From assembly GCA_951406725.2 (NCBI GenBank), contig OX597818.1, positions 58,404,001 to 58,468,000 of the forward strand: a stretch of DNA of 64,000 nt, written 5' to 3'. The notes under the pieces were generated by a model that was given only the letters and a program-made list of their open reading frames with translations, did not search any database and was not told the DNA's origin. A program made the position numbers and the translations under genes. Source of the stretch: Octopus vulgaris. Its lineage: Eukaryota. Shown here one piece after another: positions 4,673-62,254 of the stretch; the first letter of the stretch is position 1; the number at the start of each line of letters is the position of its first letter.

Positions 4673-5250
4673 GTGGCGAGCTGGCAGAAACGTTAGCACG
4701 CCGAGTGAAATGCTTAGCCGTATTTCGTCTGCCGTTACGTTCTGAGTTCAAATTCCGCAGAGGTGGACTGTGCCTTTCATCCTTTCAGGGTCGATAAATT
4801 CAGTACCAGTTACGCACTGGGGTCGATGTAATCGACTTAATCCATTTGTCTGCCCTTGTCTGTCCTCTGTGTTTAGTCCCTTGTTGGTAGTAAAGAAATA
4901 GGTATTGCGTCTGCTGTTACGTTCTGAGTTCAAATTCCGCCGAGGTCGTCTTTGCCTTTCATCCTTTTGGGGTCGATAAATTAAGTACCAGTTACGCACT
5001 GGGGTCGATATAATCAACATAATCCGTTTGTCTGTCCTTGTTTGTCCTCTTTGTTTTTAGACCCTTTCGGTAGTAAAGAAATAGGTATTTCATCTGCCTT
5101 TACGTTCTGGGTTCAAATTCCGCCGAGGTCGACATTGCACTATATCCTTTCGGGGTCGATAATTAAGTACCAGTTGCGTACTGGGATCGATCTAAACAGC
5201 TGGGACCTTCTCCAAAGATTTCTGGCCTTGTTCTTAGCGTAGAGAAGTAT
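4673..5250 (+). mobile_element. SINE family C, tandem trimer
   Basis: One head (ggcgagctggcagaaacgttagcacgcc) followed by three ~180-bp units with gagttcaaattccgccgaggtcgactttgcctttcatcctttcggggtcgataaa (Nin/Deu-domain-like). Confidence 0.85.
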
Positions 5251-8317: not shown

Positions 8318-8380
8318 CAAAAACAAATATTTTATATTTTACTTTTATAGTATTGTTGTTTACATTCTCTGTCTCTACGG

Positions 8381-9610
8381 ATGACCAGAACCAACAGAAT
8401 CGCCATGGTGAAATCCATAGCGGCGTGCGATAAGACTGGTCGCTGCTCTAAAATAGAACACTGCCCAGAAAATCACACCTGCCACATCTGTACGGAACCC
8501 GAAAATACGTTCCGTAATCGCTGGGTCGAATGTGGGACATGTCTCATCTCTGTCTGCCTCCAATGTGCCACGGACTTTCAGAAGATCCCAGGCCAAAAAA
8601 AGAGCCATCATAATGCTATGATGGATAGACTCTGGAAGATGGTTCAGCTTAAATCTTGGACTTTTCAGTGTCAGGCCTGCGTGCCTCCACAACCGACGAT
8701 TGTGTCTCCCCCTGCCACTCCCGTGGAGGAGGCGGAACAGCAACAGCAGCAACAACAAAATCAACCACAACCAGAGCAGCAGCAACAACAACAGCAACAA
8801 CAACAGCAGCAGCAACAACTAGAGCAGCAGCAGCAGCAACAACAAAATCAACCACAACCAGAGCAGCAGCAACAACAAAATCAACCACAACCAGAGCAGC
8901 AGCAACAACAACATCAACAACAACAACAGCAACAACAAAATCAACCACAACCAGAGCAACAGCAGCAACAACAACAACACCAATTGACCAGTGCGGTTCT
9001 TGCAGAACTGCAACAATCGATCTGTGCTTTAAAAGGGGAAGTAGCAGGAATAAAAGCAACCATTCAGGTTGGACTCCACAATGAGGGGTCTTATCGGAAT
9101 GCTCTGCTAAAGAACCTCCCTGTACCTGTACCTCTTGTCGCATTTAAGACCGCGGATTCTGCCACCCATGAAGTCATTGCCATTGGGGTGCCAGAAGACA
9201 TGGCTGATCTTCAGGCTTTTGCTGCCAACTCAGCCAAAGACCTAGGCTGCGTTCCCCCAACGGGTGCTATCCGCCTTGGACGACCTGGCCCAAAACCTAG
9301 GCTCATCAAGTTGTCTTTTACGGACCCCACTGAGGCAACCTCTTACCATCTGGCCTCAGTTAAAGCTGGGCGGGAAAATCGGACCACCTTCCGAACACGC
9401 CCAGGCTTACCATCCGATGTACGCCCAAAGCTACGTGTAGTGGCTTCCCTGAATAGGAACTCAGCTCTACAGGAAAGCTTCAGTCTTCGGGAAGATGGAC
9501 AAATCTGGAGATTTGTCAAGACTGCTGAAACGTGGAAGAGAGATACCAGCTGGTCTGAGTGCTCTCTACCCACAATAACTAAAAAAACTACAGCAACTCA
9601 GGGGAACTAA
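8381..9610 (+). CDS. LINE ORF1 protein: PHD-like Zn finger, polyQ tract, coiled coil, RRM/CTD-like region (409 aa)
   Basis: CHIC...WVECGTC...CLQC...FQCQAC. Heptads in LAELQQSICALKGEVAGIKATI. AIRLGRPGPKPRLIKLSF is typical of CR1/L2 ORF1. Confidence 0.85.
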   Translation: MTRTNRIAMVKSIAACDKTGRCSKIEHCPENHTCHICTEPENTFRNRWVECGTCLISVCLQCATDFQKIPGQKKSHHNAMMDRLWKMVQLKSWTFQCQACVPPQPTIVSPPATPVEEAEQQQQQQQNQPQPEQQQQQQQQQQQQQQLEQQQQQQQNQPQPEQQQQQNQPQPEQQQQQHQQQQQQQQNQPQPEQQQQQQQHQLTSAVLAELQQSICALKGEVAGIKATIQVGLHNEGSYRNALLKNLPVPVPLVAFKTADSATHEVIAIGVPEDMADLQAFAANSAKDLGCVPPTGAIRLGRPGPKPRLIKLSFTDPTEATSYHLASVKAGRENRTTFRTRPGLPSDVRPKLRVVASLNRNSALQESFSLREDGQIWRFVKTAETWKRDTSWSECSLPTITKKTTATQGN

Positions 9611-9666
9611 GCCAGAACAACCTGCCATCCTCTACACACCATCATAAACTGCGAGCAGGGTACAAA

Positions 9667-12432
9667 TTGTTGTCCTTAAATGCTCGCAGTTTATGCAACA
9701 AAATACATTTGTTCAACGCCTACGTCAGAAGTGTTGACCCTGACTTCATCACTGTCACGGAAACATGGGCGCATTCCTTACTCTGTGATGGGGTTTTCAA
9801 CATTACGGGGTACAACCTCTTCCGTAAGGACCGCACTAACCGCCGTGGTGGTGGTGTGATGGTCTACGTTCGTTCAAATTTTTTGGTAATTCCTTGTGCC
9901 GATTTGAACGAATCACAAGAAGAAGTTTTTTTCTGTGACGTGCGTATGACCATGTCAACACTCCTGCTTGGCGTTGTTTATCGTCCCCCAAGTTACCATC
10001 GGGACACACAGCTTTGCAATGTCCTCCGAGCTGCTGCCAGGAAAACAGCCACTTATGTGTTTATTGCAGGCGATTTCAATCATCCTGAGATCGATTGGGA
10101 GACCTTCCATTGGCCACAGAGTGCAAACGATTTTGTTGAGCTTGTGCTGGACTCAAACTGGTCACAAGTAGTCACCTCTCCAACAAGAGGCGACAACACC
10201 TTGGACCTGCTCTTCACCACAACTCCTGAAGCGGTTATCAATTGCACTACGGAGGAACCTCTAGGTGACTCTGATCATGCTATGATCATCGCCAATCTGG
10301 CTCTTGCGAGCAACAAATACCTGAACCATCTCCAATCTGCTTCCTTCGATTGGAAGAGAGCAGATTGGAACCTGTACCACACTGAACTACAGCACCCAAA
10401 CTGGCGTGAATTCTACAACTCTGGAGATGTGAATACTATACTCCAGAGTATCCTGGACTCAATATGGGCAGCATGTTCAGCATCATTGCCACGTAAACAA
10501 AAAAAGAAGAACCGCCCCAAAAGGGCAATTTGGGAAACTTCAGCGGTCCGACTTACCAGGAGGGAACGTCGGACTGCTGAACGGGAATACAGGTTGCATA
10601 AATCAGACACCAACAGGAAGAAGCGGAATAAATCCTCCAACCATCTCAAGCAAGTGACAAAAAAAGCAGTGCTTGAATTTGAACAGTGCATAGCAGCCAA
10701 TCCTGACAGCAAGGTTTTCTGGAAATATGTGCACTCAAAGCAGAGACCTCACTCTCCAGTGGGCCCTCTTCGCAACCCTCACACAAACCAGATCACTGAC
10801 GACCCCAAGGAATGCGCAGAACTCATTGCCGAGTGCTATGCAAACATATTCACTGTTGAAAGTCAAAATGTACCATCTTCACCATCACTAACAGCAAACT
10901 CCATAACAACTATGGAATTTACACCTGCAATGCTGCGACGTCACCTTCAAAATAAGCGCAACTATGCCTCCCCTGGTCTCGATGGAGTTACATACCTGCT
11001 TCTCAAACGTGGCAGGCACTTCCTTTTACACCAGCTTTCTATTTTCTTCCAGTACTGTCTCAACAATGGTGCTACTCCGGAGCAGTGGAAAACTGCCAGT
11101 GTCATTCCTCTGTTCAAAAAGGGCGACCGCACATCACCTGTCAACTATCGCCCAGTCAGTCTCACTAGCTGTATTGCAAAACTGATGGAATCGTGTGTCA
11201 GAGAAACACTCTGGAACTTCTGGAGCTCTCACAGTCTCATCCGACCCTCACAATATGGATTTGTCCCTAACTCCAGCTGCAGTGACCAGCTTGTCGAGTT
11301 CCTTGAGGACATTACTCAGATTACTGACAGTGGCTCATGGGTGGATGTTGTCTACCTTGACTTTGCTAAGGCTTTCAACTCTGTGCCACACAAAAGGCTT
11401 ATGGTGAAACTCTCTGCAATGGGTGTGGGGGATGACCTTTTTAACTGGTTGAAATCCTTCATCCTCAGCCGAAAGGAGGTAGTCACAGTTCTAGGACAGC
11501 ACTCTACACCATATGAGATGTCATCGGGTGTACCACAGGGATCTGTCCTTGGCCCCCTCTTGTTTGTGGCATACATTAACGACATAGATGCCAATTTAAA
11601 GAATGCCACAGTATTGAAATATGCAGACGACATCAAGCTGTACCTTGAAATCAAGAGGACAGATCCTGATGTCTACAACTCTTTCCTGCAATCAGACCTA
11701 GACACAATGCAGCAATGGATCACAGACTGGCAACTGAAACTGGCTGTGGACAAGTGTACCACCATGCATTTTGGGAGAAAAAACCCTGCGTTCACATACT
11801 CCCTCCACAACACTGATATCAAGAAATCCTCTTGCGAGCGTGACCTAGGCATCACTGTCAGCAGTGATTTGCGTTGGTCAAAGCATATCTCTAAGATTGT
11901 CAGGAAGGCCGAGGGTGTCTTGGCATCACTCAGCAGGTCTTTTGTTAGCCGCTCTCCAGCCATCTATTTAAAACTGTATACAGCTATGGTACGACCACAC
12001 TTGGAATTCGCATCATCAGTTTGGAACCCCTATCTTGCACAGAACATTGACCTCCTGGAATCTGTCCAGAGACGTGCAACCAAACGCATACCCTCCATCA
12101 GACACCTACCATATTCTGAGCGCCTTGTTTCCCTGGGCATGGATTCACTGAAGCTCCGGCGTTTGGCGACGGACTTGGTAAACACCCACAAAGTTATCAA
12201 CCACCTCACCAACAACAACACTGAACACCTTTTTGATCTCCATGTGTCTAACACACGTGGACATGCCTACAAAGTCAGAAAACAATACAGCTCCCATGAC
12301 TTTCGGAAACATTTTTTCACGCTCAGAGTTGCTGAAGCATGGAATAAACTGCCTGCGTCAGTTGTTGACTGCCATGACACTGCATCTTTTAAGGCCCTCA
12401 TGCTTTCCGAAATCCGCCGAAACTTCACCTGA
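9667..12432 (+). CDS. LINE ORF2: APE endonuclease + reverse transcriptase (frame open from 9583; TTG at 9667 is only the track's start)
   Basis: EN motifs LNARS, VTETW, YRPP, GDFN, TLDL, SDH. RT motifs NYRPVSLTS, QYGF, YLDFAKAF, GVPQGSVLGP, YADD. CR1-type C-terminus HFFTLRVAEAWNKLP. Confidence 0.95.
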   Translation: MLSLNARSLCNKIHLFNAYVRSVDPDFITVTETWAHSLLCDGVFNITGYNLFRKDRTNRRGGGVMVYVRSNFLVIPCADLNESQEEVFFCDVRMTMSTLLLGVVYRPPSYHRDTQLCNVLRAAARKTATYVFIAGDFNHPEIDWETFHWPQSANDFVELVLDSNWSQVVTSPTRGDNTLDLLFTTTPEAVINCTTEEPLGDSDHAMIIANLALASNKYLNHLQSASFDWKRADWNLYHTELQHPNWREFYNSGDVNTILQSILDSIWAACSASLPRKQKKKNRPKRAIWETSAVRLTRRERRTAEREYRLHKSDTNRKKRNKSSNHLKQVTKKAVLEFEQCIAANPDSKVFWKYVHSKQRPHSPVGPLRNPHTNQITDDPKECAELIAECYANIFTVESQNVPSSPSLTANSITTMEFTPAMLRRHLQNKRNYASPGLDGVTYLLLKRGRHFLLHQLSIFFQYCLNNGATPEQWKTASVIPLFKKGDRTSPVNYRPVSLTSCIAKLMESCVRETLWNFWSSHSLIRPSQYGFVPNSSCSDQLVEFLEDITQITDSGSWVDVVYLDFAKAFNSVPHKRLMVKLSAMGVGDDLFNWLKSFILSRKEVVTVLGQHSTPYEMSSGVPQGSVLGPLLFVAYINDIDANLKNATVLKYADDIKLYLEIKRTDPDVYNSFLQSDLDTMQQWITDWQLKLAVDKCTTMHFGRKNPAFTYSLHNTDIKKSSCERDLGITVSSDLRWSKHISKIVRKAEGVLASLSRSFVSRSPAIYLKLYTAMVRPHLEFASSVWNPYLAQNIDLLESVQRRATKRIPSIRHLPYSERLVSLGMDSLKLRRLATDLVNTHKVINHLTNNNTEHLFDLHVSNTRGHAYKVRKQYSSHDFRKHFFTLRVAEAWNKLPASVVDCHDTASFKALMLSEIRRNFT

Positions 12433-17848: not shown

Positions 17849-18387
17849 CCTATTTTTTTACTACCCACAAGGGGCTAAACATAGAGAGGACAAACAAGGA
17901 CAGATAAAGGGATTAATTCGATTACATTGGCCCCAGTGCGAAACTGGTACTTTATTTATCGACCCCGAAAGGATGAAAGGCAAAGTCGACCTCGGCGGAA
18001 TTTGAACTCAGAACATAACGACAGACGAAATACGGCTACGCATTTCGCTTGGCGTGCTAACGTTTCTGCCAGCTCGCCGCCTTTCAGTTGAAAAAGTATA
18101 ACCGACTGTCTGTCTTGTTCCATTACCAGAAAAACTGCTTTCTCAAATTCATATATATTTCTTTACTGCCCAGAAGGGGCAAAACATAGAGAGAACAAAC
18201 AAGGACAGATAAAGGGATTAATTCGATTACATCGGCCCTAGTGCGAAACTGGTTCTTTATTTATCGACCCCGAAAGGATGAAAGGCAAAGTCGACCTCGG
18301 CGGAATTTGAACTCAGAACGTAACGACAGACGAAATACGGCTACGCATTTCGCCTGGCGTGCTAACGTTCCTGCCAGCTCGCCGCCT
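17849..18387 (-). mobile_element. Two SINE family C copies produced by tandem duplication
   Basis: Copy 1 (17849-18082) is flanked by 17-bp TSD tttcagttgaaaaagta. Copy 2 (18155-18387) is followed by the same ~70-bp flank. Confidence 0.85.
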
Positions 18388-19858
18388 TTCAGTTGAAAAA
18401 GTATAACCGACTGTCTGTCGTGTTCCATTACCAGAAAAAAACTGCTTTCTCAAATTCATATAGTTTTCTCTCTCCACATAAAGTATATTTCACTCAATAT
18501 TTTCTTATTTAAAGAGCCTCATCAGTATTCTGTATTTAATTCATATAATATCAAAGTATTCACCCAGATTTCAGAAGCTGAAACCTATTCTTTATAGTAA
18601 ATGACAGACAAGCATAAAATGATGATGCAGACAATTTATGGTGCGTGTCATATACCACAGAATTTTTCTTTGTTCGCTTTCGTTATCTATGTAACATTAT
18701 TCCGAAATATAATTCAGGATGATTTACTAAAACGTCGCTATCATTTGGAGAGAAAGATTGTACTAGCCATCGATAGAAAATGCTTATGGTTTATAGATCG
18801 ATTTCCTATAGCAACATTCAATAATTACCTGATAGCCATTGACATCGATGTTAAACGTTATTGAATAAACACAGAGCAGCTGAAAACTATGTTCTACTTT
18901 ACTTACAATCGATACACAGGAGTTCATAATCAATCAAATAATGAATCTAATTCTGTCTAACCTCATGAAACCAATGATGGAAAATATTAATTTACTATAG
19001 ACCTAACACATTCGTTCTATTTACTTTTATATGTCTCTATTAATCTTCTCTAGGAAAGAAGTGGTGTTAGCTGTAAGGGGAAAAACTTGTTAAAATAATA
19101 CGCTTTCTATCAATTTGCATTGGAATTATGAAAAAAAAAACTAATACCGAAAATTTCAGACACTAATAACTCAATGGAAATATTTAAAGAATTAGGACAC
19201 AATTATTGATGAATCATTGTCATCTAATATTGCTAAATTGCAATTATAAAATGCAGCTATAATGACCTTAATAGATTTAGAATATATTTTTTTTGTTTTT
19301 AATTCCTGCTTCTACTTATTGTGGTAGGTCAAGTCCTATGTAGAAGATGATAAACAAAACATTTCTCTATAAGCATAAGCTGATTAATAATCAATTCTGT
19401 AATGAATAATTCAAGGAATTTATTTAGTGTAATGTCTTACTAAAAATATTTGCGTTTATCTTACAATCAAAAGCATCACTGCTTGACCTTACGAGGATAC
19501 GTCCATTCTATTGAGTGTTCACACAAACATTTAGAGGGAAAATGTATATACATACATACATAAACACACATACATACATATATATGAATATATGGACGGA
19601 GACAGGGGAGGAGAGAGAGCGAAGTGGAGAGAGAGGCATATGTCTGGAAAGTGTGAATCACTGCAAAATTTGACGTAGCATGTGCATGTATATGTTTGTC
19701 CGTGTGTGCATGTATATATATATATATATATATACATGCACTGAGACAAAAAGAGAACACTTTCGAAATCCTCTCCACATTGTTATCCAGGTTGGAAGAG
19801 GAAATTTCGAAGATGCAGCAAATTACATAATATCTTCCAAACCATTGTAACTCTTCTA

Positions 19859-39650: not shown

Positions 39651-40391
39651 CGTGTATGACGTGAGTGTGACAAAGAGAGAAATGGAGAGACAGAGAGATA
39701 GTGAGATAGATAGATAGAGAAAGAGAGAGAGAGAGAGGGGAATAGAGAGAGAGAGTTCTTTTTCAAGAATCGATAAACAAAATTATTGAACAGTGTGTCG
39801 AATTGTACAGAATGAATAGAAGCTATCACATTTTAATTTAAAAAATTTTTTTTATAATTTGATCAATGGCTGCATTATTACAAAGCACAATTATTCAATA
39901 TTTTTTGTGCATTTCAATCGGCGAGACATGTTGGGACTGGGTGCCCTCGGCGATTCAGCTATTCACAATACATTGTATTAAGTTTCAGACAATCTTTAAA
40001 TGATTTATTTTGTTAAACAAAAATGTTTTCTGTTTTTCCCTTGGAATAGAAATAAAGTAAAGATATAATATATCTACATGATTTAATGCTTAGGTCGGTA
40101 TTTATTCAACGTGGAGCTTAACATCCATTATACGTTATAATCCATATTTCCATTCCTTGTATAGACGATCGAATAGATATAAGAAATGTAAACACTATTA
40201 GATATAAATATGAACAATGGAACAGTATTACTTATAACTGGATTATCAAATATTTATTCATATACTAATGCAATTTTTAAACAATGCTCTCGTAGATATA
40301 GGTTCCTTTAGAAAAATGTCAATATAATTGCATGGGAGTAGGAGTAACTTAATGCAGAACAAACACAGTAACGATTATTTAAAAAGCATAA

Positions 40392-40578
40392 GCGGTATTT
40401 CGTCTGATGCTACGTTCTGAGTTCAAATTCCGCCGAGGTCGAATTTGCCTTTCATGCTTTCACAGCTGATAAATTAAGTACCAGTTACACACTGGGGTCA
40501 ATATACTCGACTTAATCCGTGTGTCTGTCCTTATTTGTCCCCTCTGTGTTTAGCCCCTTGTGGCTACTAAAGAAATAG
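40392..40578 (+). mobile_element. 5'-truncated SINE family C
   Basis: 15-bp TSD ttatttaaaaagcat (40375-40389 / 40580-40594). Confidence 0.82.
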
Positions 40579-40928
40579 GTTATTTAAAAAGCATCTTTAC
40601 ATGTTCTGCTTGTTTTTAAACATGTCAGTTATTTATAGTTCGCTGATATGCGATGCCACGGGAAGGCTCATGGCTCAGTGTTTAGTTTGGTGTTTTCCAA
40701 CGTAACGTGTAGGAAAATTGGTGTTTGGTAAGCGTTAGCGTGGTTTGTGAAACTTTTTGCACATTCTTGTCGACCCTAAGCCTATCTTCAACATTGAAAT
40801 GAAAGCAAAAATCGCCACGGAATATTTATACTTAAAGCATGGGAATCGATGTAGCTGCGACCAAACACCATACCGAGTGAGGTATCTGCATTTGTTAGGC
40901 GTTTGCTTCTCTGTTTCCCTATCAATTG

Positions 40929-41475
<547 letters not shown>

Positions 41476-41699
41476 AGTGACAAGCGTTTGTAAAGCAGCA
41501 GGGGTATCCACTCACCATTGAGTCGAGGTATCCATCAGCCAGGTAATTGAATTGAAGATCGTATTTCTATATTTAAAATAAATATGTTGATGGGTACACA
41601 TTTTTTCCAAAAAGGTGGAAACCGGAAATTTTGTTATTAAAAAGTGGGGCACCGGAAAAAAGTTAGTGAAACACTGGGTTAGATCGTCAGACTAATGAT

Positions 41700-41990
41700 C
41701 AAAGGGAGTGATTTCTAGACCGGGCTGTGTGTAATGTTATTCCGTAAGGCATTTCATTTAACTTTTTTCCAGTTTACACACTTCTAGAATTGATTTGCGT
41801 CACCACTGTTGCCAAACTATATCAGCTTTTGCCATTCCCTTGGACATCATTGGTCGCATGGAGAGGGGTGGTTGTTATGGATCGTCGACTGCTTGTTTTC
41901 CATAAACTACCTTGCCCTGATTTGTGTACCTCGAAGGGGTACTTTCCATGTGCAATCCCATTGTCATTCATGGCCAAATGGGGTCGTTAT
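41700..41990 (+). mobile_element. Old SINE family D
   Basis: gccaaactatatcagcttttgccattcccttgga...cgactgcttgttttccataaactaccttgccc...gtgcaatcccat. Related to the reverse complement of 57830-58055. Confidence 0.55.
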
Positions 41991-42073
41991 CTCTTATATA
42001 ATGCCACACATTGTTTTCACACGCATACGTATAGATATGCAGCTCAAACAAATACAAGAACAGACTCCTCAGT

Positions 42074-42115
<42 letters not shown>

Positions 42116-42395
42116 GTGTGTGTATGTGTGTTTGTGTATGCATATATATATATATATAAATTAAATTAGAGATAAAACCACTATTAGGCAAATCAAACAA
42201 TGAATAACATAACCCAAAGCATAAAAATAATTAATATAATATACAAAATATATAAAATATGAAATTAAAAAATTTAAATTATTTTAAATTTAAAATTTAA
42301 ATTACTAATTTATATTTATAATTATATTTAAATTTTTTTTATATAAAAATATATAACTATTAAAAAGTATTAAATAGTTTAATATAAGATAAAAG

Positions 42396-42457
<62 letters not shown>

Positions 42458-42796
42458 GTGTGTGTGTCTGTGTGTGTGTCTGTGTGGCTATATAAATATA
42501 TGTATATATACACATACATATATCGTAAAATAAGAAATAGAAAATATTTGGTACAATATCATGTATTTGAAAAAAAGAAATGAATATAATAATTTTCCCA
42601 CTTTAAAAATTATATGTTTGCAACTTCACAAAATTGCATAGCATCCTTGCTCAGAATCCGTGCAAGTCTACTCCGTAACGATCCTGTTTTAGAATATATA
42701 CTGCCGTAGCTAATCTGTTAAGTGTTCTGCATTTTTACTTTTGTAAACTTATAAACATATAATTATTAAAGTGAAAAAATATCACAAAGCTATTCC

Positions 42797-42890
<94 letters not shown>

Positions 42891-42899
42891 ATATATATA

Positions 42900-43455
42900 T
42901 AAATTAACAATTGAGGATAAAATCTTTAAAAGAAATTATCAGTAGTCAGCGTGAAAAACCTCGTAAGAGAAAAATCCGTAAATTCTTCCTCTTTGAAAAT
43001 ATTCATTTATATTATATTGAGGGTACTACTATTCGTAGATACCAACACGCTAAGAGGGACCAATTTATATTTTTCACCGGAATAGTTCAATACTGAATTT
43101 TTATGCCGACTAGACAATTTGTGACCGAAATGCATTGCGAATAAGCCCGCCATTTTCATAGATATGTAAAGATAAACATTCGTACATGCTACGACGAATT
43201 CTACGGTTGGCTATCGAGCTTGTAATGTTATGTTTTTCTCTTATATTCCTTGAGTTTGTTGCACTGATGAACATGAAATGCATATTCTGCATTAAATGCG
43301 AAATCACATGTGATATGTAACTGAATTCTTTTTTAAAATGATGTGTTTTGAAGTTTTGCATTCGGTAAAATTTTGTTTATTTTTAGTAGTTTTGACCGCA
43401 TTGGTCCCTCTTAGCGTGTTGGTATCTACGAATAGTAGTACCCTCAATATAATAT
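42900..43455 (+). mobile_element. Non-autonomous Penelope-like element: inverted 3' arm plus direct copy, between (TA)n tracts
   Basis: Perfect ~56-bp inverted repeat (43009-43064 vs 43400-43455) enclosing a hammerhead motif. Confidence 0.7.
43258..43321 (+). ncRNA. Type I hammerhead ribozyme
   Basis: Stem I GUUGCA/UGUAAC, CUGAUGA, stem II (CAU..AAUGCA-uauuc-UGCAUU..AUG), GAA, palindromic stem III AUCACAUGUGAU, cleavage after AUA. The closing 10.1-11.1 pair is an A.C mismatch. Confidence 0.75.
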
Positions 43456-43686
43456 ATATATATATATATATATTAATTATTATATATATATATATATTTC
43501 TTTTTGTATTTGGTTTGCAAGATTCTTTATATGAGTTCTGTGTATTGAAGCATATTCTGTTGTGTCTGGGGAGAGTCATTTTGTCACCGGTAAAATTTCC
43601 ACTTATTTCTTATTTCTATTTTCCTAAAATTTTCGTTGCATCTTGCAACCTTTACAATAGTCTTGACTCTGTCCGTTATTTACCGT

Positions 43687-44188
43687 GCGTTACCTTTTGC
43701 TTGTTTGTGCGCATGTGTGAGAGTCAGTGTATGTGTGTGCTTATACATGCATGCATGTACGTATGTATGTGTGTATGTATGTTTGAATGTGCATGTATGT
43801 ATATGTGTGTGTTTGTATGCATATATATATGTATGTATATCTGTACATCTGTATGTACATATCCTGCATATTCATGTGCTTGCATGTCCGTGTTGTGTAT
43901 TTTACTATGCATGTGTGTGAGCATGTGTTTGTATATGTATGCACCATATGTATGCACCATATGTGTCCTTGTGTGGAGTAAAGTGTGTGTGTATATGGTC
44001 CCATGACCATATATACAATCACATACAGATGCACACATACATATATACATATGCCAACACAGACATATATACGTACATACACATGCAAACATACATACAC
44101 GCATACATACGTACATGCATGCATACATAGACACACGCACACACACTGACCCACACATGCGCACAAACAAACAAAATGTAACGCACAG
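43687..44188. repeat. Diverged inverted duplication, ~160-bp arms
   Basis: 43687-43845 (tgcgttaccttttgcttgtttgtgcgcatgtgtg...) matches the reverse complement of 44024-44187. Confidence 0.75.
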
Positions 44189-44192
44189 TATG

Positions 44193-44231
<39 letters not shown>

Positions 44232-44235
<4 letters not shown>

Positions 44236-44457
44236 GTGTGTGTATGTTTGTGTGTCGGTGTTTGTGCCCCCAACATCGCTTGACCCCCGATGCTGGTGTG
44301 TTTACTTCCCCATAACTTACCGGTTGGGCAAAAGACACCGATAGAATAAGTACTAGGCTTACAAAGAATAAGTCCTGGGGTCGATTTGTTCTACGAAAGG
44401 TGGTGCTCCAGCATGGCCACGGTCTAATAACTGAAACAAGTAACAGAGTAAAAGAGA
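44232..44457 (+). mobile_element. 3' half of SINE family B
   Basis: Match to family tail. Confidence 0.8.
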
Positions 44458-45076
44458 GTGTGTATATTTTTCTCTACCCTTCCGTATCATGATGCTCACC
44501 TCGTAAACTATTTGTTTTTACCGGGAATTATTGTTCAAGTAAAACGTATGTGTATGCGTATACCCACGTGTATTTGTGTTTGTGTCAGAGTTACAAGCCT
44601 TTGCGTAAATGGAGGAAGGTGTGTGAATATGGGAAGTGTAGGCGGGTGAGATTTCATACTTAACTTCATGCGTTATGTGTTTCAAAGTGTGATGTTTAGG
44701 GGTGCAATTACGTGTGTACATGCGTCCGAGTGCTGAAATTGTGAATGTAAGGAAAGAAGGAATCGACGAGAGTATATGCATGCGGAAACTATATTAGTGA
44801 TTTGAATGTGTGTGTGTGTGCGTGTGTGCTTGTTTGTCTGTGTAACTATGGAAGTGGTGGTGGGTGTGGAAACTTGGGGATGTGTGATTGCATAAATTCA
44901 GAAAGAGAAAAATGAATTTTTGTGTAATTGTTTTACAAATTGGTGCAAGCACTTATAAACTTCAATATTTACTATTTATCCATCTGTTTTCTGTTCCGAG
45001 GTGTGAAATTTTGAAAGGCGAGATAAAACTAAATACAGGATCTGCCCGATAAACTAGAAAATTCCCACTAATAACA

Positions 45077-45097
45077 ATGATAATGATGATGACGATA

Positions 45098-45129
<32 letters not shown>

Positions 45130-45226
45130 ATTGATGATGATAATGATGATGATGATGATAATGATGATGATGATGATGATAATGATGATGATGATGATAA
45201 TGATGTTGATAATAATGATGATGATA

Positions 45227-45283
<57 letters not shown>

Positions 45284-45301
45284 TTGATAATGATGATGAT
45301 A

Positions 45302-45336
<35 letters not shown>

Positions 45337-45400
45337 AATGATGATGATGATGATAATGATGTTGATGATGATAATGATGTTGATGATAATGATGATGATA

Positions 45401-45447
<47 letters not shown>

Positions 45448-45706
45448 AATGATGATGACGATGATAATGATGATGATGATAAGGATAATGATGATGATAA
45501 TGATAAGGGTGATGACAATGATGATGATGATAATGATGTTGATGATAATGATGATGATAATAATGATGATGATAATGATGATGATAATGATGATGATAAT
45601 GATGATGGCGGTGGTGGTGGTGATAATGATGATGATGATGCTAATGATGATAATAATGATAATAATGATAAGGCTGATGACAATGATGATGATGATAATG
45701 ATGATA

Positions 45707-45738
<32 letters not shown>

Positions 45739-45760
45739 GATGATGATGATAATGATAATG
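45077..45760. repeat. ~680-bp imperfect (GAT)n/(AAT)n trinucleotide array
   Basis: Direct reading. Confidence 0.95.
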
Positions 45761-46407
45761 TACAACTGTGAGAAAACGGCGTGAAGTGGGGGCCTGTTTA
45801 TATTATAGGTTTTCTTCAACAGAATACAGTCTCTTTCTGTATTCCTTTTTCCTTATTTTTCTGACAAAGTGATAATTAATCGTAGATCATAATCCTTTGG
45901 GATACTAATATAATTCTATTGATGTTGTGTAGGTGTTCATTACCGGAAGGTGTGATATATTTAGATTGTTTTAGTTCATCTTGCAATCAGTTTTCCATGG
46001 CGAATCTTAATTCGATTACATTGTGGAATTGATCTCTACACTAGGTTGCTTAGTGAGGTTCTCTTTGAGGGAATTCACCAACCGTTTCAGACACATTACA
46101 AGGTGCAAGCGAGGTTTTCTGCGTCTGAATATGCATTCGACGGCATTAAAAAGCTATTTAGTGCGGTGCTGCTAGGGAAATCGATATTGACACACCGTTC
46201 AAGAAGTCTGTCATACAAGACTATACTGTCTAAAATTCAAACATGACGATTTAGATCATATATATATATATACATATATATATATACTTCTTATATTATA
46301 TATATTGTATATTATGTTAATTATATATATTTTTTTGTTTTTTATGTTTTGGTTTATGTCCATTACTGTTTGATTTGTATAATAGTGGTTTTATCTCTAA
46401 ATTAATT

Positions 46408-46456
<49 letters not shown>

Positions 46457-47739
46457 CAGGGTAGTTACCATTAAGTAACATGGTAAGTAGTAGGCGTGTA
46501 TGTAAGTCTGGGAAGCAGATGTATTGGAAAGAAGGTGGAAGTTCATAGGAGGAAAGTATTGTTTTTAAGATCTGGATTGATACAAAGTGTTTTTCGGAAG
46601 ATTTTTTCCTGGATAGTACAGTCTTTTAAAGCTCACGGATGATTTGGAGACATGGATGTTTCGGATTTTAAAAATTTTCCAAATATTTTATATTGGATTT
46701 AATGCAGCTTAATCGTATAGAAATTAATTTGTTTATATTCTGTTATCATATTTCTTATTCCTTATATATTCCAGATGAGTTTCTTAACCATGGATTTGTC
46801 GCTTTCTGAACATTTTAAATATAATGGTAATCTTCTAATTTGAGAGAACCGCTGCTCACAAAAAAGCACAAATAACCATACAACCGCAAGTAAACAGATG
46901 TACAAACACATATACTTACATACGTACATACTTATATATATGATATACGCACACACACTTGTATATACGTATACTCACAAACAGATGCACAAGCACATAA
47001 ACGTATATACATGCATGCTTATATACATGATACACACACACGAATGTATATATGTATACATACAAACATATGCAAACACATACACATGTGTGTGCCTAGA
47101 GCTTATGTATATAAATATATCTTTTCAAATATACAAGTCTCCATAAAGTTTATCATGTACTTGTAAACCAAGTCCTCGCGATAAATACTATATTTATAGT
47201 ATTTAGAACTGTCTTCCGATTAAAGATCTAAGGTTTCCTAAATTGTTTGAAGTTGCTTTTTTCTTTAATTCCTGCACATTTAATTTATTTTCTGCTTCAA
47301 TAACTCTAGCGCCGTGAGTGTCATTTCTTTTGTGTTTCTTTTTTATATAAATATCACTAAATATGTAACATTTAAGGTTTCATTTTGCAGTTTTAGTTGA
47401 TTATTTCTTTTGTTTACTCGCCTGTACTCATGAACCGCATCTCAATATAAACAACAAATAAACAAGCTTATTTGTGGCGTACTTCAAAGGAATCATTTAA
47501 TTAATTTTTAAATAAACTTCAATCATCTGCCGTTGATGTTGTTTTGCTCTAGATTTTCTTTTAAGATTTTCCTATTCAAGTACGCAAAATATTTTTGTTT
47601 GTGTTGGTGTGTAAATTTAATTAAAAGCAAAAATACACGAATTAAACCAGTAGAAAAGAATGCCAGCCTGATTCGTTCTTACCACAATTATTTAGAAGCT
47701 ACATGACGTGTCACACCTGATATTTTGGCCCAAATAGAA

Positions 47740-58055: not shown

Positions 58056-58596
58056 CAACATATATACGTATACATTTAATATATGGAAATTATTTGGGAA
58101 CCTCACCTGCTGTCTCCAGTCGAAGATGCCTAGAGTCTGGAATAAATTATATATGGAAAGCGCTTCAGTCTTCTTTGTGATAACATTTCCATTTAATGTT
58201 ATAAAATAAACAGAAAATTAAACACAAATTAAGTCCAATAAACAGAAGTTGTACAATAATTGGGAGGCTATTTAAAGGGCCCTTTAAATATATTTGCTTC
58301 ACTCAGTGACACCATACAGGTGGCATACTAAAATATTCAAAGGAATTACCTAGATAAGTTGAGGATATATGTTAAATATCAGTTGGCATTTGTTTTGCAT
58401 TTGTGACACAAACGATGGAAGTGATTCCTGCCTCAGCTACGAAAGTCTCTTCATGAAATACCTCAAATGACGACATGGTTGTATGATTCCCCTCGGTCAT
58501 TTGCAGCATTCCGTGCACTATTTCTCGCTTAATTGGTTCTTCTTAAACATCTGTCGCAAAAACGAATTAAGGGATTTCATGAGATCTCAGAATACT

Positions 58597-59197
58597 TATT
58601 TCTTTACTGCCCACAGGGAGCTACACAAAGAGGGGACAAACAAGGACAGCCAAGCGGATTAAGTCGATTATATCGGCCCCAGAGCGTAACTGGTACTTAT
58701 TTAATCGACCCCGAAAGGATGAAAGGCAAAGTCGACCTCGGCGGAATTTGAACTCAGAGCCTAGCGGCAGACGAAAAGATTATTTCTTTACTACCCACAA
58801 GGGGCTAGACACAGAGAGGACAAACAAGGACAGACAAACGGATTAGATCGATCATATCGACCCCAGTGCGTAACTGGTACTTATTTAATCGAACCCGAAA
58901 GTACGAAAGGCAAAGTCGACCTCGGCGGAATTTGAACTCAGAACCTAGCGGCAGACGAAATACCTATTTCTTTACTACCCACAAGAAACTAAACACAGAG
59001 AGGACACACAAGGACAGACAAACCTATTAAGTCGATTATATTGACCCCACTGCGTAACTGGCACTTATTTAATCGACCCCGAAAGGAGGAAAGGCAAAGT
59101 CGACCTCGGCGGAATTTGAACTCAGAACGTAAAGACAGACGAAATAACGCTAAGTATTTCGCCCGGCGTGCTAACGTTTCTACCAGCTCACCGCCTT
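58597..59197 (-). mobile_element. SINE family C, tandem trimer
   Basis: Three ~180-bp units with a single head at the 59197 end. Confidence 0.85.
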
Positions 59198-61656: not shown

Positions 61657-62254
61657 GGCGGTGAGCTGGCAGAATCTTTAGCACGCCGGGCGAAATGCCT
61701 AGCAGTATTTCATCTGCAGGTACGTTCTGAGTTCAAATCCCGCTTAGCTCAACTTTGCCTTTCATCCTTTCGGGGTCGATAAATTAAGCACCATTCATGC
61801 ACTGCGGTCGACGTAATCGACTTAATCCATTTGCCTGTACTTGTTTGTCCGCTCTGTGGTTAGCCCCTTGTGGGTAGTAAAGAAATAGTTATATCGTCTG
61901 CCGCTAGGTTCTGAGTTCAAATTCCGCCGAGGTCGACTTTGCCTTTCATACTTTCGGGGTCGATAAATAAAGCACCAGTTACGCACTTGAGTCTATGCAA
62001 TCGACTTAATCCGTTTGTCTGTCCTTGTTTGTCCCCTCTATGTTTAGCCCCTTGTGGGTAGTAAAGAAATAGTTATATCGTCTGCCGTTATGTTCTGAAT
62101 TCAAACTCCGGCAAGGTCAGCTTTTCTTTCATCCTTTCAGGGTCGATTAAATAAGTACCAGTTACGCACTGGGGTCAATGTAATCGAATTAATCCGTGTG
62201 TCTGTCCTTGTTTGTCCCCTCTGTGTTCAGCCCCTGGTGGGCAATAAAGAAATA
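61657..62254 (+). mobile_element. SINE family C, tandem trimer with a single TSD
   Basis: Three units. Flanking repeat agtaaatc(t/c)acctc at 61634-61647 and 62255-62268. Confidence 0.85.

Follow-up and report, generated by a model that had tools for sequence, protein, structure and literature searches.

Non-LTR retrozymes of metazoans (Cervera and de la Pena 2020, PMC7229834; Li, Clavereau and Pollet 2026, bioRxiv 10.64898/2026.07.22.740005) are described, in the accessible text of both papers, as non-coding tandem units of low GC content with one type I hammerhead ribozyme per unit, in genomes that also harbor Penelope-like elements (PLEs). Animal retrozymes and PLEs may or may not need hammerhead cutting: reported activity is often low or absent, and 8 of 9 predicted Xenopus retrozyme dimers showed no in vitro cleavage (bioRxiv 10.64898/2026.07.22.740005, accessible part). 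Hammerheads in PLE pseudo-LTRs (pLTRs), on which Cervera and de la Pena (2014, PMC4209133) reported, are likewise type I, with a minimal stem III in a palindromic region, an extra base between positions 9 and 10.1 and a conserved G10.1-C11.1 pair; the available text offers a dimer model, a rolling-circle-like proposal and a scheme of cutting in multimers and silence in circles. The EN+ PLEs of Craig et al. (2021, PMC8557442) are characterized by partial tandems, inverted 5'-truncated copies, a tail of 30-40 bp at one end and (TA)n targets. Mismatches at the base of stem II occur naturally: axolotl HHR_Amex2 (~60 000 copies) has U·U there, and its monomer is 22% cleaved in 1 h and its dimer more (PMC7229834), while U10.1·U11.1 hammerheads are known from nature and U·U is reported as the best-tolerated mismatch at 10.1-11.1 (Perreault et al. 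2011, PMC3088659, accessible part).

The locus examined here lies in a 64-kb window, the whole stretch of Octopus vulgaris DNA that was analyzed (64 000 nt), from a host genome of 2.8 Gb. It carries parts of a 499-nt unit that, judged by its sequence, fits the definition of a metazoan non-LTR retrozyme: a non-coding tandem unit with 31% GC (retrozyme criterion <45-50%) and one type I hammerhead, in a genome that contains PLEs. Its size compares with RNAs of 170-400 nt in PMC7229834 and a range of 51-972 bp in bioRxiv 10.64898/2026.07.22.740005. Unlike the retrozymes in the accessible text of those papers, it occurs mostly as dispersed two-armed insertions in (TA)n and has a long stem II with an internal loop. 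With the pLTR hammerheads of PMC4209133 it shares the type I fold, the palindromic stem III region, the dimer model and the rolling-circle-like proposal; compared with the described part of that set, its monomer stem III is 4 bp long, and it lacks both the extra base and an adjoining ORF. Partial tandems, an inverted truncated copy, a one-end tail and (TA)n targets recall EN+ PLEs as presented in the available text of PMC8557442, but the unit has no ORF and its tail measures 112 nt. HHR_Amex2 offers a parallel in its stem II base mismatch in a natural hammerhead, which in axolotl is carried by a high-copy family that cuts better as a dimer; against it and the U10.1·U11.1 hammerheads, as far as their accessible descriptions reach, the mismatch here is A·C, has G-C relatives in the same genome and occurs in two families. 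Published work already covers this class of element, the dimer model and a stem II base mismatch. In open-access PMC and bioRxiv text (figures and bioRxiv supplements apart), we found no report of a fixed A·C at 10.1-11.1, of G-C relatives of such a pair in the same genome, of its presence in two families or of the 499-nt family, and the available portions of PMC9901934 and PMC2837043 give no figure for an A·C pair. We favor, with moderate confidence, the reading that the locus is a two-armed retrozyme insertion whose RNA likely retains cleavage, probably at a low level and chiefly in a predicted double hammerhead form. A Penelope-like reverse transcriptase (RT)/GIY-YIG protein would copy the element into (TA)n.

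The hammerhead motif

A type I descriptor run over both strands of the window gave a single match (Table 1), with CUGANGA, GAA, A15.1-U16.1 and H17 placed around three stems. Under the hammerhead numbering applied here, in which we take 43271 to be position 10.1 and 43299 to be 11.1, the standard G-C pair is absent and an A·C stands in its place. The original prediction had named the core letters, a stem I paired at six of six positions with one GU, the 12-nt palindrome and a cut after 43315; the sequence agrees on all of these, the cut itself being predicted. A nested minimal hammerhead using the GAAA at 43275-43278 was rejected by inspection, stem I being impossible beside its own cut site.

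Table 1. Coordinates of features in the 64-kb window.
Feature	Position	Strand	Description	Basis
Type I hammerhead motif	43258..43321	+	extended stem I to 43252-43328	sequence, descriptor, constrained fold, covariation
Stem I	43258-43263 with 43316-43321		6/6 pairs, one G-U	
Outer stem I	43252-43257 with 43323-43328		six further pairs beyond a bulged U	constrained fold
CUGAUGA core	43264-43270			
Stem II	43271..43299	+	A10.1 (43271) opposite C11.1 (43299); 3 pairs, 2x2 loop, 6 pairs, 5-nt loop	
GAA	43300-43302			
12-nt palindrome	43303..43314	+	predicted: 4-bp stem III in the monomer, 12-bp duplex in the double hammerhead	
Predicted cut site	3' of A43315			
Right arm	43062..43456	+	395 nt of the 499-nt unit; outer end E1; crosses the cut site	arm map (L001 1553-1947)
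Left inverted arm	42897..43064	-	168 nt; outer end E2	arm map (L001 1388-1555)
56-bp perfect inverted repeat, left copy	43009..43064		partner 43400-43455; unit stretch present in both arms	
(TA)n tract at E2 end	42800..42901			
(TA)n tract at E1 end	43447..43497			
U6 snRNA-like copy	42610-42716	-	degenerate	
LINE	8351-9610 and 9583-12432	+	two open frames	
Tandem arrays	4720-5195, 17851-18469, 58591-59146, 61706-62254		units of 182-305 bp	

Across 12 hand-picked hammerheads of the clan, whose kinship inflates the test, 11 of 20 named pairs changed on both sides (5 of 6 in stem I), a figure matched by 0 of 500 shuffles, and pairing was kept in 92.5% of alignment cells compared with 22-42% in slid controls. 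Stem III, invariant in these relatives, adds nothing to the test. Because the stems covary across relatives and both controls fall far lower, the motif goes beyond chance; the covariation and the descriptor match bear out the proposed type I hammerhead, which on these sequence grounds we regard as real. The conservation of 11 of 11 core letters across the clan is not used as evidence; the rows were picked by core pattern, so the count is circular. Rfam hammerhead models, among them the RF00163 proposed as a check, gave no match at E ≤ 5 over 40000-47000, nor at E ≤ 10 over 43180-43400, which leaves the window motif below the gathering threshold. This says little, since even a canonical G-C sister copy is barely detected (E 8.9, 13 bits on RF03152).

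Two-armed insertions in (TA)n

The unit measures 499 nt from cut to cut and occurs head to tail. A 24-mer ~90 nt past the cut site has 547 exact matches in the genome, and the first 100 of these (three matches left out) yielded arm maps at 68 loci. The 114 arms have their outer end at E1 (~142 nt after the cut site) in 53 cases, at E2 (~254 nt after it, a spacing of 112 nt) in 52 and elsewhere in 9. All 34 fully classified back-to-back pairs combine E1 with E2; the other 6 of the 40 pairs have one unclassified end, and none of the 40 is a same-end pair (E1+E1 or E2+E2). An overlapping second set of loci that takes in older subfamilies, and probably segmental duplicates, likewise gave E1+E2 in 36 of 36 classified pairs among 43. 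(TA)4 lies within 30 nt of the outer end in 103 of 105 classified ends. A circular or multimeric template is needed to account for the 23 of 90 arms that outrun a single unit and the 62 of 90 that run across the cut site; arms pass round the unit as many as 2.4 times, and no ORF interrupts successive units. Near-identical arm coordinates at L060, L070, L071 and L072 suggest one insertion spread by segmental duplication. A 22-nt motif between E1 and E2 (824 exact matches) is common to several families of the clan (L194-L223, L053, L095) that differ strongly in stem II length; in the circular fold, a conserved segment upstream of E1 offers this motif a pairing partner, and the motif may act in recognition. 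Contigs of four runs from other organisms, which are not RNA evidence, span the unit and its head-to-tail joint in A and G forms. Words of the unit also occur in runs that may be RNA, though contigs of this kind would not reveal circles.

At the window copy, the two arms meet at a 3-nt AAT microhomology and each is shorter than one unit; the tandem arrangement is seen at L013 and L171. The perfect ~56-bp inverted repeats and (TA)n tracts that had been pointed out are present, but the element is not bounded by a hairpin: the repeat is the overlap of two arms of one unit, and the left arm extends 112 nt outward beyond it. A miniature inverted-repeat element (MITE) with 56-bp terminal repeats and a chance hammerhead-like motif would explain why this copy appears bounded by perfect inverted repeats and TA, and why Rfam finds no hammerhead. 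However, the overlap differs at every insertion in the arm maps and is not terminal, no fixed terminal inverted repeats exist, copies form tandems and variable arms, and the stems covary. The arm maps rule this reading out, and we give it practically no credence.

Partial tandem and inverted copies, a one-sided tail and a microsatellite target together constitute the PLE-type insertion signature, and from this architecture we infer PLE-type mobilization. GIY-YIG matches in the genome (148 of 150 scored) include an intact 781-aa RT + GIY-YIG family. Among 16 of its loci, copies end in (TA)n at two sites ~35 nt apart (12 and 3), one locus having no motif match, and at one locus both ends lie on opposite strands; these ends match the 30-40 bp tail and inverted copy in the accessible part of PMC8557442. 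The outer end motif of the 781-aa element resembles E2. Tail similarity to this element, scored for four relatives, was equaled by 18, 9, 14 and 0 of 500 shuffles; 18/500 belongs to the window subfamily, and the 0/500 case was found post hoc. Because this similarity is weak and the two ends lie 112 nt apart in the unit vs ~35 nt in the 781-aa element, the mobilizer is read from the architecture, with no named partner. An intact coding Penelope-like family (L118-L133, e.g. L129 881-4584, 5467), with an upstream 479-aa frame, carries a minimal hammerhead-like motif with a U3-A8 core and, opposite G, C or U at 11.1 depending on the copy.

The motif had been assigned to the pLTR of a young PLE or to a retrozyme. 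The young age, the Penelope relationship and the retrozyme type hold up; the pLTR of a coding element does not, because the unit joins head to tail with itself and lacks any adjoining ORF common to the copies. If the unit were nonetheless the pLTR of an autonomous PLE, with the copies as its 5'-truncated ends, the insertion signature it has in common with the coding 781-aa element and the weak similarity at the E2 end would be accounted for, and retrozymes and pLTRs are related in Xenopus (bioRxiv 10.64898/2026.07.22.740005, available text). Yet arms circle the unit with no ORF in between, and 30 loci have nothing in common beyond the unit, neither flank nor ORF; the window insertion locus has no RT or endonuclease ORF. 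PLE protein matches occur at only 11 of 177 loci and at scattered positions (at L158, the one inspected, a TA tract and ~300 nt separate the match from the arm), and 0 of 30 GIY-YIG loci read (of 148 matches) carry the unit as their own tail. Thus, the search for linked PLE ORFs that had been recommended turned up none that continues the unit at these loci, and we consider the pLTR reading unlikely.

An A·C pair common to the entire young lineage

The mismatch belongs to the whole young lineage and is not damage to the window copy. A occupies the position of 43271 in all 43 copies from the best BLAST matches and in all 62 young copies, a set chosen by the downstream 24-mer typical of young subfamilies; the latter comprise 60 with A·C and the palindrome, one with A·C and a loop change and one with A-U. 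Genome-wide, the exact 22-nt context is found with A 149 times and with G never. These counts exclude the decay of a single copy and with it the single G>A change by which the original prediction had explained the mismatch. As for whether the consensus at 43271 is G, the young lineage has A, and G is ancestral only at the level of the lineage. A looser pattern has 235 matches, and the first 100 listed show 83 G and 17 A.

In the alignment, G-C goes together with a U·U fourth pair and a mostly non-palindromic AG center in subfamilies S1 and S2; S3 has A·C on an S1/S2-like background; and S4 and S5, the latter including the window copy, combine A·C with a U-A fourth pair and a perfect palindrome. 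Most older copies have AG, not AU, at the palindrome center, and older G-C subfamilies are 9-12% distant. In a tree built without the 10.1 column and with close outgroups, the family forms one clade (100/100) and the A·C members nest within the G-C members (95/95). A root inside the A·C group S3 came from a distant-outgroup tree with weak support and was discarded, as closer outgroups put G-C basal. Copies picked by pattern differ from the column majority by 0.8% in S4 vs 3.0% in each of S1 and S3, which places the latest bursts in the A·C lineage; the S5 value of 0.6% is biased by copy selection. These figures cover copies of at least 300 nt, after removal of 10 rows that were chimeric, duplicate or atypical.

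A second family lies at a distance of 26%. Its 69 matches have A at 10.1 in 46 cases, G in 22 and T in 1; all five of its A copies read have C at 11.1, and the A·C copies read keep a non-palindromic center. A single origin of all A·C rows is rejected (AU p = 0.0007), and the A·C rows of the second family fall into more than one clade in the best tree. The sister family has G-C and A-U at 10.1-11.1. One genome thus holds a dated natural series, with G-C basal, A·C derived and younger, A-U in the sister family and A·C again in the second family, so that natural sequences alone would suffice for setting cleavage rate against amplification.

Several further observations concern these families. The second retrozyme family (L224-L233, L204, L207) comprises G-C and A·C subfamilies and has mostly AUC as its cut triplet; in five of its matches A7 and A10.1 occur together, which might represent another origin. 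At L036 (100-1800), a sister-family tandem with an A-U pair adjoins an S3 insertion with only simple repeats between them, and L031 has one A·C copy and one G-C copy. Two other hammerhead repeats (L031 2300-3100, L055 900-2000) have the same stem III palindrome and no detectable similarity to the 499-nt unit.

An A opposite C in RNA could also be edited. ADAR prefers A·C mismatches, cephalopods edit RNA heavily, and in the predicted monomer fold this A sits in a long imperfect hairpin, so A-to-I editing might restore the pair as I·C and switch the ribozyme on. Copies made from edited RNA would carry G, yet no young copy does: G is found in 0 of 149 exact-context matches and 0 of 65 aligned segments, and rare variants have no A>G strand bias (23 A>G vs 31 T>C, p 0.78). 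Editing rescue in the transposing pool is accordingly very improbable in our judgment.

Predicted folds and possible cutting

The 64-nt motif alone folds no better than its shuffles (z -0.57), its lowest-energy fold is not a hammerhead, and the single-motif hammerhead accounts for 3% of the 77-nt ensemble and for 0.2% of the 171-nt one. Eight natural tandems were tried as dimers, four of which did not provide two complete motifs. For the natural dimers L013 and L171, unconstrained folding predicts as the lowest-energy structure a double hammerhead whose cores are both open and whose stem III spans 12 bp; its energy is 14 kcal/mol lower than that of two monomers. The G-C dimer L085 is also predicted to fold this way, and L052 nearly so. 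The proposal that the palindrome allows dimeric folding is therefore supported at the level of predicted structure. The circular monomer, by contrast, is predicted to fold well (z -3.1 against 40 shuffles), its core being tied up in other pairs. With cores open in the tandem and hidden in the circle, multimers would cut and circles would not, which fits the scheme in the accessible text of PMC4209133.

Under the reading we favor, a tandem transcript would fold as a double hammerhead, and a host ligase may close the released monomers into circles, a step that has been reported in other animal retrozymes. A PLE endonuclease would nick both strands within (TA)n, one 3' end priming at E2 and the other at E1, and each primed copy would run back round the template for a variable length, producing back-to-back arms. 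U·U being the best-tolerated mismatch reported, A·C is implied to be worse; loss of the basal pair may be tolerable thanks to the length of upper stem II, a stem I of 12 pairs and, in the dimer, a stem III of 12 bp. The U-A pair in stem II and the perfect palindrome of the youngest subfamilies would be later additions.

A substantial competing possibility, to which we assign clearly less weight, is that the A·C ribozyme is essentially dead and a PLE protein copies uncut tandem transcripts from arrays, cutting being dispensable. No arm stops at the cut site (0 ends at phases 497-3, ~1.7 expected, among the arms mapped at 68 loci) and most arms read across it, so linear cut RNA has left no genomic footprint, and uncut multimers account for the arms as well as circles do. 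In both the youngest lineage and a second family, a pair that is normally conserved is broken, and most predicted Xenopus dimers are inactive in the accessible data of bioRxiv 10.64898/2026.07.22.740005. An excess of arm ends at phases 14-18 (5 vs 1.5 expected, p 0.018), just outside stem I in a T run, was picked post hoc and is not counted. Against a dead ribozyme, the hammerhead changes fixed after the G-to-A step keep or add pairs (U-A in stem II, the perfect palindrome, outer stem I U-A to U-G) and spare the catalytic letters, and natural dimers are predicted to fold most favorably as the double hammerhead. The shortness of the branch makes both points weak, and with so few changes after the G-to-A step continued selection on the core cannot be shown.

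Still assuming that tandem RNA is cut, A10.1·C11.1 might be a repeatedly selected throttle. Two families would have independently broken the most conserved pair of stem II, and the window lineage would then have perfected its palindrome and spread further than its G-C relatives, because cutting confined to the double hammerhead form leaves the circular template intact for the Penelope enzyme. We regard this speculative idea as less likely than not, and the non-palindromic center of second-family A·C copies is a point it must explain. If true, living G-C and A·C sister subfamilies would let the relation of cleavage rate to retrozyme success be measured directly.

The window holds other repeats as well (Table 1). 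A U6 snRNA-like copy, at 44 bits equal to the Rfam gathering score and probably a pseudogene, lies ~180 bp left of the two-armed insertion. The 949-aa frame of the LINE has endonuclease and RT domains, and its 419-aa frame has a glutamine-rich stretch and no Pfam match. The four tandem arrays look related to one another and to a common short repeat of the genome.
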